From Dehalococcoidia bacterium (lineage in GTDB: Bacteria > Chloroflexota > Dehalococcoidia > SZUA-161 > SpSt-899), in the NCBI GenBank assembly GCA_046484125.1, contig JAWOBX010000036.1:226-64225 (forward strand): a DNA stretch of 64,000 nucleotides, in the 5' to 3' direction. Position 1 is the stretch's first letter, and each line of letters begins with the position of its first letter. The position numbers and the translations under genes are program-made. Under the pieces are notes generated by a model. That model was given only the letters and a program-made list of their open reading frames with translations. It was not told the origin of the DNA and did not search any database. Below are positions 49,237-49,781 of the stretch, in pieces.

Positions 49237-49602
49237 ATGACTTTACAGACCGAGTTTGCTTTTACCCTGCCTAAAGGATACGTAGATAAAGAAGGTAACC
49301 TTCATAAAGAAGGCGTTATGCGGCTGGCCACGGCGGCGGATGAGATCAAACCCATGAAAGACATGCGGGTGAGATCCAACCAGGCCTACCTGGTGATTGT
49401 TTTGCTTTCCAGGGTCATTACCAGGCTTGGAACCATCACGGAGGTAAACCCCGGTATTATAGAGGGACTGTTCTCAGCCGATCTGGCTTATTTACAGGAG
49501 TTCTATCGTCAGATCAATGAGGAAGGCACCACAAACCGCACCGTGACCTGCCCGGAATGCGAGCATAGCTTTGAGGTGGATATCAGCAACCCGGGGGGAT
49601 AA
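49237..49602 (+). CDS. Small conserved eCIS protein; candidate tail-assembly chaperone (0-frame product, 121 aa) ending at a slippery GGGGGGA heptamer
   Basis: Positioned between the tube genes and upstream of the tape-measure candidate. C-terminal C-P-E-C-E-H motif. The ORF ends ...NPGG* at G_GGG_GGA_TAA. Confidence 0.5.
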   Translation: MTLQTEFAFTLPKGYVDKEGNLHKEGVMRLATAADEIKPMKDMRVRSNQAYLVIVLLSRVITRLGTITEVNPGIIEGLFSADLAYLQEFYRQINEEGTTNRTVTCPECEHSFEVDISNPGG

Positions 49603-49781
49603 AGGGCTACCCCCTCGAAGAAATGTTCGAGGAGGTAGCCTACATCGCTTATTATCTCCACTGGCCGCTGGATGACATCCTGGAAATGGAGCACGATGAT
49701 CGTCGCGAATGGGTCGAGAAAATCGCCGAGATCAACCAGAGATTGAATGAAGGGGAAGGGGGGATAGGGGATTTTCGATGA
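49593..49781 (+). other. Candidate -1 programmed ribosomal frameshift site (G GGG GGA, 49593-49599) and its -1-frame extension to a TGA stop at 49779-49781
   Basis: The -1 frame reads PGG-IKGYPLEEMFEEVAYIAYYLHWPLDDILEMEHDDRREWVEKIAEINQRLNEGEGGIGDFR with no stops. The X_XXY_YYZ heptamer sits immediately before the 0-frame stop. Confidence 0.4.

Follow-up and report, generated by a model that had tools for sequence, protein, structure and literature searches.

The 64,000-nucleotide stretch of a Dehalococcoidia bacterium analyzed here (contig JAWOBX010000036.1; the whole stretch is referred to as the window) carries a gene cluster for an extracellular contractile injection system (eCIS), in which a 121-residue open reading frame (ORF) and an overlapping frame that matches the Pfam family DUF6760 very probably form one recoded gene. 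Its predicted products are a tail-assembly-chaperone pair of the kind known as gpE/gpE+E' in phage P2 and G/GT in phage lambda. The programmed -1 ribosomal frameshift that would generate the longer partner is supported because the frame, the slip site and a downstream hairpin are conserved in 80 loci, the extension is homologous to P2 E', and naturally occurring fusions fit the predicted junction. A preliminary description of the window, made from its sequence, had proposed such a frameshift and a chaperone-type fusion, and the conservation across 80 loci, the homology to P2 E' and the natural fusions bear this proposal out. By Pfam, the frameshift site sits within a full eCIS-type cluster, i.e., that of a phage-tail-like injection system, with its core genes present.

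The 121-residue ORF (49237..49602, plus strand) terminates with AAC CCG GGG GGA TAA. As the preliminary description had stated, it ends at a slippery heptamer directly before its stop codon: G_GGG_GGA (49593..49599, plus strand) touches the TAA at 49600-49602, and its conserved core, G_GGG_G, occupies 49593-49597. A second perfect heptamer, C_CCG_GGG (49590-49596), overlaps the first. An upstream stop in the -1 frame (49572..49574, plus strand) confines the shift, by translation, to 49575-49599; from 49575 the -1 frame is open up to the TGA at 49779-49781, and the overlap of the two frames amounts to 28 nucleotides (nt). The post-shift reading is IKGYPLEEMFEEV...GIGDFR, comprising the 60 stop-free codons from 49599 that had been noted earlier. 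This -1 extension (49599..49781, plus strand; 60 codons plus TGA) encodes the DUF6760 helical domain, which would be the E'/T-like portion of the long form. Wherever in the C3G6 run the -1 shift takes place, the result is a 181-residue protein, ...SNPGG-IKGYPLEEMFEEV...GIGDFR, in which the junction falls between NPGG and IKGYPLEE and the junction peptide is NPGGIKGYPLEE. The window sequence alone is weak and at most suggestive evidence for a frameshift; an in-frame XXXYYYZ motif lies within the last five codons of 6 of its 157 long stop-to-stop ORFs, and 2 of these 6 also carry a -1 extension of at least 50 codons. The frameshift is lifted above chance by comparison: wherever the extension occupies a frame of its own, as it does in 80 loci, this is the -1 frame, and the G-run is phase-locked.

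According to the proposed mechanism, most ribosomes would stop at the TAA at 49600 to release the 121-residue short form. A fraction would slip back by one base, with GGG (49594-49596) in the P site after G49593 and a G-initial codon in the A site, and a 15-bp hairpin at the mRNA entrance would promote the slip. The slipped ribosomes would read AUA AAG GGC UAC... for 60 codons to yield the 181-residue long form, joined as ...SNPGG-IKGYPLEE.... As in lambda and P2, both forms may coat a tape-measure-like protein, and the extension domain would recruit tube subunits for polymerisation of the tube to a defined length; neither the short nor the long form would be expected in the finished particle.

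Relatives were found by a database search with the hypothetical fusion, which gave approximately 8000 matches. Most of them are 121-124 residues long and end in (P/L)G(G/E), some being named 'phage tail assembly protein' by NCBI, and a few are single ORFs of 174-185 residues that cover both parts. Clustering of the family at 50% left 2265 representatives, with approximately 5-9 single-ORF fusions among the top 150. A locus scan with one genome per species provided 80 loci, which were pooled with the window and previously fetched loci, and duplicates were removed. The loci derive from Chloroflexota, Myxococcota, Acidobacteriota, Paenibacillus, Nostoc, Burkholderiaceae, Methanoregula, Methanothrix and Methanosarcinales, and they include two isolate genomes (Paenibacillus artemisiicola and Ornatilinea apprima) and several chromosome-level assemblies. 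In 80 of the 81 distinct loci with an extension match (84 of 85 records before deduplication), the extension follows directly on the short ORF in the -1 frame, the sole exception being an in-frame fusion (L001). The frames overlap by no more than 31 nt in 30 of the 80 loci, with a minimum of 16 nt. At the protein level, the residues Y4, E12, A14, W22, H32 and R35 of the extension are invariant, and conservation in the -1 frame starts right after the G-run, 5' of the ATG at 49623 in the window.

These data also bear on whether the two frames could be independent genes, with the DUF6760 protein translated from ATG 49623, or by coupling or reinitiation near the stop, and with a G-run that is Shine-Dalgarno-like or incidental. 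Such an arrangement is very unlikely. Stand-alone 'DUF6760 family' proteins of 52-90 residues are indeed listed by NCBI and gene callers, and ATG is the first extension codon in 5 of the 80 loci, in some of which it overlaps the stop as ATGA. However, the gene calls begin at many different positions, so that the called N-termini vary widely, and in 45 of the 80 loci the -1 frame lacks any ATG, GTG or TTG between the upstream stop and the conserved Tyr of GYPL (64 have no ATG before this Tyr). The preliminary description had offered a start at ATG 49623 as the alternative to the fusion. This codon exists, but it is an unlikely start, since it is a change to Met, specific to the window, of a conserved Leu (CTG or CTC in other loci), lies in the hairpin loop and is located 3' of the conserved GYPL. 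Moreover, a fixed -1 phase in 80 of 80 loci is not expected for independent genes, and natural fusions of the two parts exist. The G-run was rejected as a Shine-Dalgarno sequence for a second ORF because its spacing of 0-2 nt is too close and start codons are missing.

Conservation of the slip site is strict with respect to phase. In 80/80 loci, the first G of the run, which is 5-8 nt long, occupies codon position 3 (xxG GGG Gxx), and the slip codon is GGG in every one of them, compared with 19% GGG among the Gly codons elsewhere in these ORFs. The codon before GGG likewise ends in G in 80/80 loci (third-position G elsewhere, 34%) and encodes nine amino acids (L, P, V, Q, M, A, T, S and K). 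The codon after GGG is GGG in 39 loci, GAA in 28, GGA in 11 and GAG in 2. From the lock to codon position 3, the invariant GGG and the preceding G, it follows that the predicted slip unit is G_GGG_G, within which a P-site GGG can re-pair perfectly one base back. Conservation of the heptamer, which the preliminary description had named as a check, thus holds for G_GGG_G in 80/80 loci, but the specific G_GGG_GGA is just the variant found in the window.

An identical protein would result if RNA polymerase, and not the ribosome, slipped on the G5-G8 run and added one G to give a single-frame mRNA. The homopolymer is the conserved element, its length varies from 5 to 8, and a metagenomic fusion (L089) differs simply by a G-run that is one base longer, all of which would suit transcriptional slippage. 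However, we consider it improbable. Runs of every length start at codon position 3, and this lock counts against the polymerase because phase matters to tRNA re-pairing and not to polymerase slippage. The conserved hairpin lies downstream of the run at a spacing of the frameshift type, whereas known hairpins that stimulate polymerase slippage form in the nascent RNA, upstream of the run. For bacterial polymerases, most documented slippage concerns A/T runs of approximately 8 or more. Additionally, distant relatives of the gene use T_TTT_TTC, of which the close variant T_TTT_TTG is annotated as the site of the -1 translational frameshift in P2.

The search for a downstream stimulator, which had also been recommended at the outset, led by RNA folding to a conserved hairpin at 49604..49641 (plus strand). 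This predicted stimulatory element has a stem of 15 bp, in which one C/A mismatch occurs, and ATG 49623 falls within its 6-nt loop; it begins 4 nt past the heptamer, and its minimum free energy is -27.1 kcal/mol (z -5.7). Across the 80 loci, pairing is retained in 81% of the cells, as opposed to 30-57% in controls with the partner strand displaced by 1-3 columns, and compensatory changes are found as CG/GC 38/19, GC/AU 57/5 and CG/UA 71/3. The full helix was tested by these explicit pair counts since RNAalifold alone recovered 9 of the 15 pairs. In 66 of the 80 loci, no other 40-nt window of the gene is as stable as the hairpin, for which the mean is -19.7 kcal/mol versus -8.1 kcal/mol for control windows.

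Two further observations concern the same region. When 121 nt are folded together, the slip site (49590-49602) pairs with UUAUCUCC at 49651-49660, 3' of the hairpin and enclosing it; this pairing is probably specific to the window, because the partner sequence differs in most other loci. In addition, the Rfam sodF small RNA model gives a sub-threshold match over the slip site and hairpin (49547-49641; 33.1 bits versus a gathering cut-off of 46, E 0.0055), a resemblance that is regarded as chance and as caused by the hairpin.

More distant, phage-like relatives provide a separate view of the same junction. Six IMG/VR contigs (L102-L107) carry homologs of the short ORF at 34-39% identity, and the extension is again in the -1 frame. 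Their slip site is GAT TTT TTC/T, i.e., T_TTT_TTY and not a G-run, which is near the T_TTT_TTG of P2. That homologous genes carry two distinct slippery motifs in equivalent positions, and that both motifs lead into one and the same -1 domain, is hard to explain except by programmed frameshifting. In one of these contigs (L106, e.g., at 5989-6607), the gene order is HK97-gp10-like, Pvc16_N-like, sheath, gp19 tube, short-ORF homolog, -1 extension and an 853-residue PF10145 tape measure. The PF10145 gene lies directly 3' of the chaperone, and this layout shows the family in the classical chaperone position. The short-ORF homolog of this contig passes the PF12322 threshold (32.1 bits versus 24.5, E 1.2e-7). 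No significant hairpin follows its T-run (z -1.2).

Natural fusions are consistent with the predicted junction. Four single-ORF fusions (P0003, P0007, P0035 and P0040) align to it with the length unchanged. In the fusion of locus L089 (P0003), the G-run exceeds that of the usual two-frame layout by one G, and this may reflect either a genuine variant or an error in the homopolymer; no long G-run is present at the junction in L001 (P0007), L088 and L090. One locus, in a Syntrophomonadaceae assembly (L075, 4300-4440), is the only genome locus with no DUF6760 match. Its G-run is broken (CGGGGCGGGGAT), a stop closes the -1 frame 14 codons past the junction and AT-rich sequence follows, so this locus appears, from its sequence, to be a decayed copy.

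Since homopolymer runs are prone to indel errors and rare single-ORF fusions are present in databases, it might be argued that the G6 of the window is a sequencing indel within one gene, as the preliminary description had considered, or that the extension is a dead remnant. This is extremely unlikely, as the two-frame layout recurs in 80 distinct assemblies, among them isolate and chromosome-level genomes, and runs of 5, 6, 7 and 8 G's all keep the -1 relation. The nearest relatives, which have G5+A or G6, share the frames of the window, and the six invariant residues of the extension, which is clearly conserved at the protein level, count against decay.

The identity of the extension lends support to the recoded chaperone gene from another side. 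The extension of the window matches PF20546 (DUF6760) with 50.3 bits against a threshold of 27 (E 2.6e-13), and all 80 of the 80 extensions match this family. The window extension is not a formal member of PF06528 (Phage_P2_GpE), to which its match is weak (13.4 bits, E 0.055, the cut-off being 23); individually, 38 of the 80 extensions match PF06528, with a best E value of 5.3e-6. The coverage of the P2 models was checked on the annotated P2 genome, where gpE corresponds to PF10109 and E' to PF06528, the latter being reached only via the annotated -1 frameshift. A comparison by hhalign of the 80-extension profile with P2 E' gave a probability of 89.8% (E 1.8e-6), and the alignment spans (D/E)VA..(F/L)HWP....M....W.EK. 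By these sequence comparisons, the DUF6760 and P2 E' (PF06528) families are judged to be homologous. Since the extension profile matches P2 E', the -1 frame of the window is thus predicted to encode a homolog of a domain that P2 reaches by frameshifting only.

The short form is composed of an alpha/beta N-terminal domain followed by a beta-hairpin with a CxxC motif. Its Pfam matches are weak and comprise Phage_TAC_7 (E 0.026) and zinc-ribbon models over the CxxC motif. Among the 80 relatives, PF10109 (Phage_TAC_7) gives weak matches in just 5, and PF12322 (T4_baseplate), the genes of which we take to be gp26/gp51, gives weak matches in 13 (best E 0.0091). The AlphaFold 2 model of the natural fusion P0003 has a mean predicted local distance difference test score of 84. 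It contains a confident alpha/beta domain at residues 1-100, a short beta-hairpin with CxxC, a disordered segment at 117-123, exactly at the junction, and a helical C-terminal domain at 126-173. The best Foldseek matches among viral models (BFVD) are T4-like 'baseplate hub assembly' proteins (E 1.8e-8 to 1e-3), and the tape-measure chaperone of phage Mica (E 0.013) and a tail assembly chaperone are also found; against the PDB, the sole match is B. subtilis YqbN (3klu), which is weak (probability 0.47). A profile search of PDB sequences returned nothing relevant, and tblastn of the fusion against 50,697 GenBank phages gave no match. The N-terminal domain is therefore best described as chaperone-like by position and by modeled fold, and not as a demonstrable member of Phage_TAC_7. 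As a separate observation on this domain, the relatives P0001, P0004, P0005, P0006 and P0027 are proteins of 210-280 residues with a tandem pair of short-ORF chaperone domains, each containing CxxC; one of the tandem-domain relatives carries the JGI label 'phage FluMu protein Com'.

Several points weigh against the interpretation of the locus as a frameshifted chaperone gene. G_GGG_G does not belong to the classical, efficient slip motifs, and sites with YYY = GGG have scored poorly when surveyed in E. coli. The A-site codon is GAA or GAG in 30 of the 80 loci, which entails imperfect re-pairing once the ribosome has slipped. With 4 nt between heptamer and hairpin, the spacer is shorter than most, though still within the usual range, and four loci (L025, L045, L046 and L055) lack the hairpin. 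Both of its arms encode conserved peptides (GYPL and EEVAY), so that the conservation of the RNA is partly driven by the protein. In the N-terminal domain, the short ORF scores below the threshold of PF10109 (15 bits versus 25), and hhalign of the short-ORF family with P2 gpE, either as a single sequence or as a 20-sequence alignment, detected no similarity (probability of approximately 0.1%); its assignment to Phage_TAC_7 (PF10109, P2 gpE, Mu gp41) was rejected on both grounds. The 181-residue product is a prediction from sequence. Furthermore, the 729-residue protein that we take as the tape-measure candidate (50635..52824, plus strand) is one by position only, has no Pfam or NCBIfam match and is not adjacent to the chaperone gene: a 97-residue ORF (49813-50106) and a second tube gene, gp19-like (50193..50630, plus strand; PF06841, E 1.8e-45), separate the two. 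The preliminary description had pointed out that phage chaperone pairs lie just upstream of the tape-measure gene; in the window, the gene does not directly precede the tape-measure candidate.

Because both hairpin arms encode conserved peptides, synonymous sites were examined. In the arms, Val is encoded by GTA in 72 of 73 cases (background 9%), Gly by GGC in 56 of 56 (background 50%), Ser by AGC in 20 of 20 (background 30%) and Pro by CCC in 62 of 79 (background 29%), whereas Tyr codons outside the stem show no such constraint. This synonymous-codon constraint points to selection acting on the RNA itself, as judged from codon usage.

The organization inferred for the window can be compared with several known systems. 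Tail assembly chaperones made by frameshifting are typical of long-tailed phages and tailocins and have long been known there. The closest parallel is P2 gpE/gpE+E' (PF10109 + PF06528), which has the same order of sheath, tube and chaperone, a short ORF with a -1 extension that departs a few codons ahead of the stop, and homology of that extension, with the common (D/E)VA..(F/L)HWP...W motif. However, P2 slips at T_TTT_TTG, whereas the window family has a G-run and a conserved hairpin; P2 gpE has no detectable sequence similarity to the N-terminal domain of the window protein, which has a C-terminal CxxC hairpin; and the window has a small ORF and a second tube gene before its tape-measure candidate. 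Moreover, P2 is a phage, while the locus of the window is an eCIS with an AAA+ ATPase. The G/GT pair of lambda, like the tail-assembly-chaperone frameshift reportedly conserved among long-tailed phages, follows the same logic: two proteins have a common N-terminus, a -1 slip shortly before the short ORF ends produces the longer one, and the gene is a neighbor of the tube gene. Lambda is a siphovirus with the slip site G_GGA_AAG, and its G/GT genes lie directly before the tape-measure gene; this analysis found no sequence similarity between G/GT and the window gene. E. coli dnaX, in which A_AAA_AAG and a downstream hairpin give a shifted product that is the shorter one, has in common with the window a bacterial -1 slip with a stable stem-loop a few nucleotides 3' of the slip site, but it differs in the slip motif and is an unrelated gene, and no upstream Shine-Dalgarno-like stimulator was identified in the window. 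The N-terminal domain of the window family resembles the T4 gp26/gp51 family (PF12322) by fold matches, by weak profile hits and by the distant relative L106. The window family is predicted to frameshift, unlike T4-like phages, for which the title of a 2022 paper in Virology indicates that frameshifting is absent.

With respect to injection systems, the window has the cap, sheath, tube, VgrG, gp25, gpJ and AAA+ ATPase of Afp/PVC-type (lineage I) eCIS and thus belongs to the same class of machine. In Afp/PVC-type systems, Afp14 is the tape measure, Afp15 the ATPase and Afp16 the cap; the eCIS papers covered here mention no chaperone or frameshift for eCIS. Chen et al. 2019 described lineage II eCIS loci as lacking afp14 and carrying conserved genes with no identifiable domains. 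No mention of a tail-assembly chaperone or a frameshift was found in Geller 2021, Casu 2023, Weiss 2022 and Vladimirov 2023, which, along with Chen 2019, agrees with the earlier view that the standard components of eCIS do not include such a chaperone. No description of DUF6760 was found in the literature, and none of a frameshift or assembly chaperone in eCIS or contractile injection systems, within a coverage that excluded Vladimirov et al. 2022 (Virology). The phenomenon is therefore of a known kind, the tail assembly chaperone frameshift, for which no earlier description in eCIS was found.

We lean towards the view that the cassette of G-run and hairpin is a general, unannotated route by which a large lineage-II clade of eCIS and contractile injection systems (Chloroflexota, Myxococcota, Acidobacteriota, Firmicutes, Cyanobacteria and methanogenic archaea) makes a P2 E/E+E'-type pair. 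If so, thousands of stand-alone 'DUF6760 family' genes would not be genes but recoded C-termini, eCIS reported as lacking Afp14 would assemble in a phage-like manner around a tape-measure-like protein, and a single -1 signal of bacterial type, in which the P-site slip is unusual in being all G, would function in bacteria and archaea alike. The proposed frameshift itself would assign a function to two of the conserved unknown genes of lineage-II eCIS loci and to Pfam DUF6760. It also points to a systematic annotation error that splits one recoded gene in two, NCBI naming the halves separately as 'phage tail assembly protein' and 'DUF6760 family protein'. The length of the injection system is predicted to be set by a chaperone and tape-measure mechanism as in phage tails, and leaving out the frameshift product when particles are expressed or re-engineered should block assembly. 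The G_GGG_G site and its hairpin constitute a well-conserved and easily tested -1 signal occurring in bacteria and archaea.

In the surrounding cluster, Pfam identifies an AAA+ ATPase with a winged-helix domain (40171-42357), followed by an eCIS_core (DUF4157) protein that starts with GTG at 42363, a Peptidase_C70 protein (start 43722), a Pvc16_N cap (start 46046), the sheath (start 47058) and a first, T4 gp19-like tube gene directly 5' of the chaperone gene (48634..49086, plus strand; PF06841, E 8.8e-32). Downstream of the 729-residue ORF are CIS_tube/LysM (start 52846), a VgrG-like spike (start 53637), gp25 (start 55457), gpJ (start 55881) and gpI (start 57865). The closest relatives of this locus are metagenome-assembled Dehalococcoidia genomes. 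The order from sheath to tube to chaperone is retained across related loci, and where the upstream flank is covered, a gp19-type tube match lies approximately 0.8-1.0 kb 5' of the shift site. The G-rich intergenic sequence between the first tube gene and the chaperone gene (49087-49236) folds at -56 kcal/mol (z -2.2).

By its position, the 729-residue protein is inferred to be the client of the chaperone; in the more distant relatives L008 and L011, only its two ends match. An NCBIfam search gave no family for the short ORF, the extension, the 97-residue ORF or the 729-residue ORF. The 97-residue ORF, which has homologs in several related loci, and the 729-residue candidate have in common a C-terminal motif of approximately 40 residues, ..E.IA..VY....K..L..E+ER (BLASTP E 4e-4), which may be a shared docking or packaging signal.

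Two adjacent proteins 5' of the cap gene (43722-44615 and 44539-46008) have a common N-terminal leader of approximately 95 residues (46% identity, E 1e-22), and one of the two contains the Peptidase_C70 (AvrRpt2-like) domain. From its sequence, this common leader on two different payloads looks like a cargo or loading leader. Finally, the end of the AAA+ ATPase ORF (42340-42365) contains an in-frame A_AAG_GGA heptamer with the eCIS_core gene in its -1 frame; this heptamer is probably due to chance, because the eCIS_core gene has its own GTG start 6 nt past the ATPase stop.

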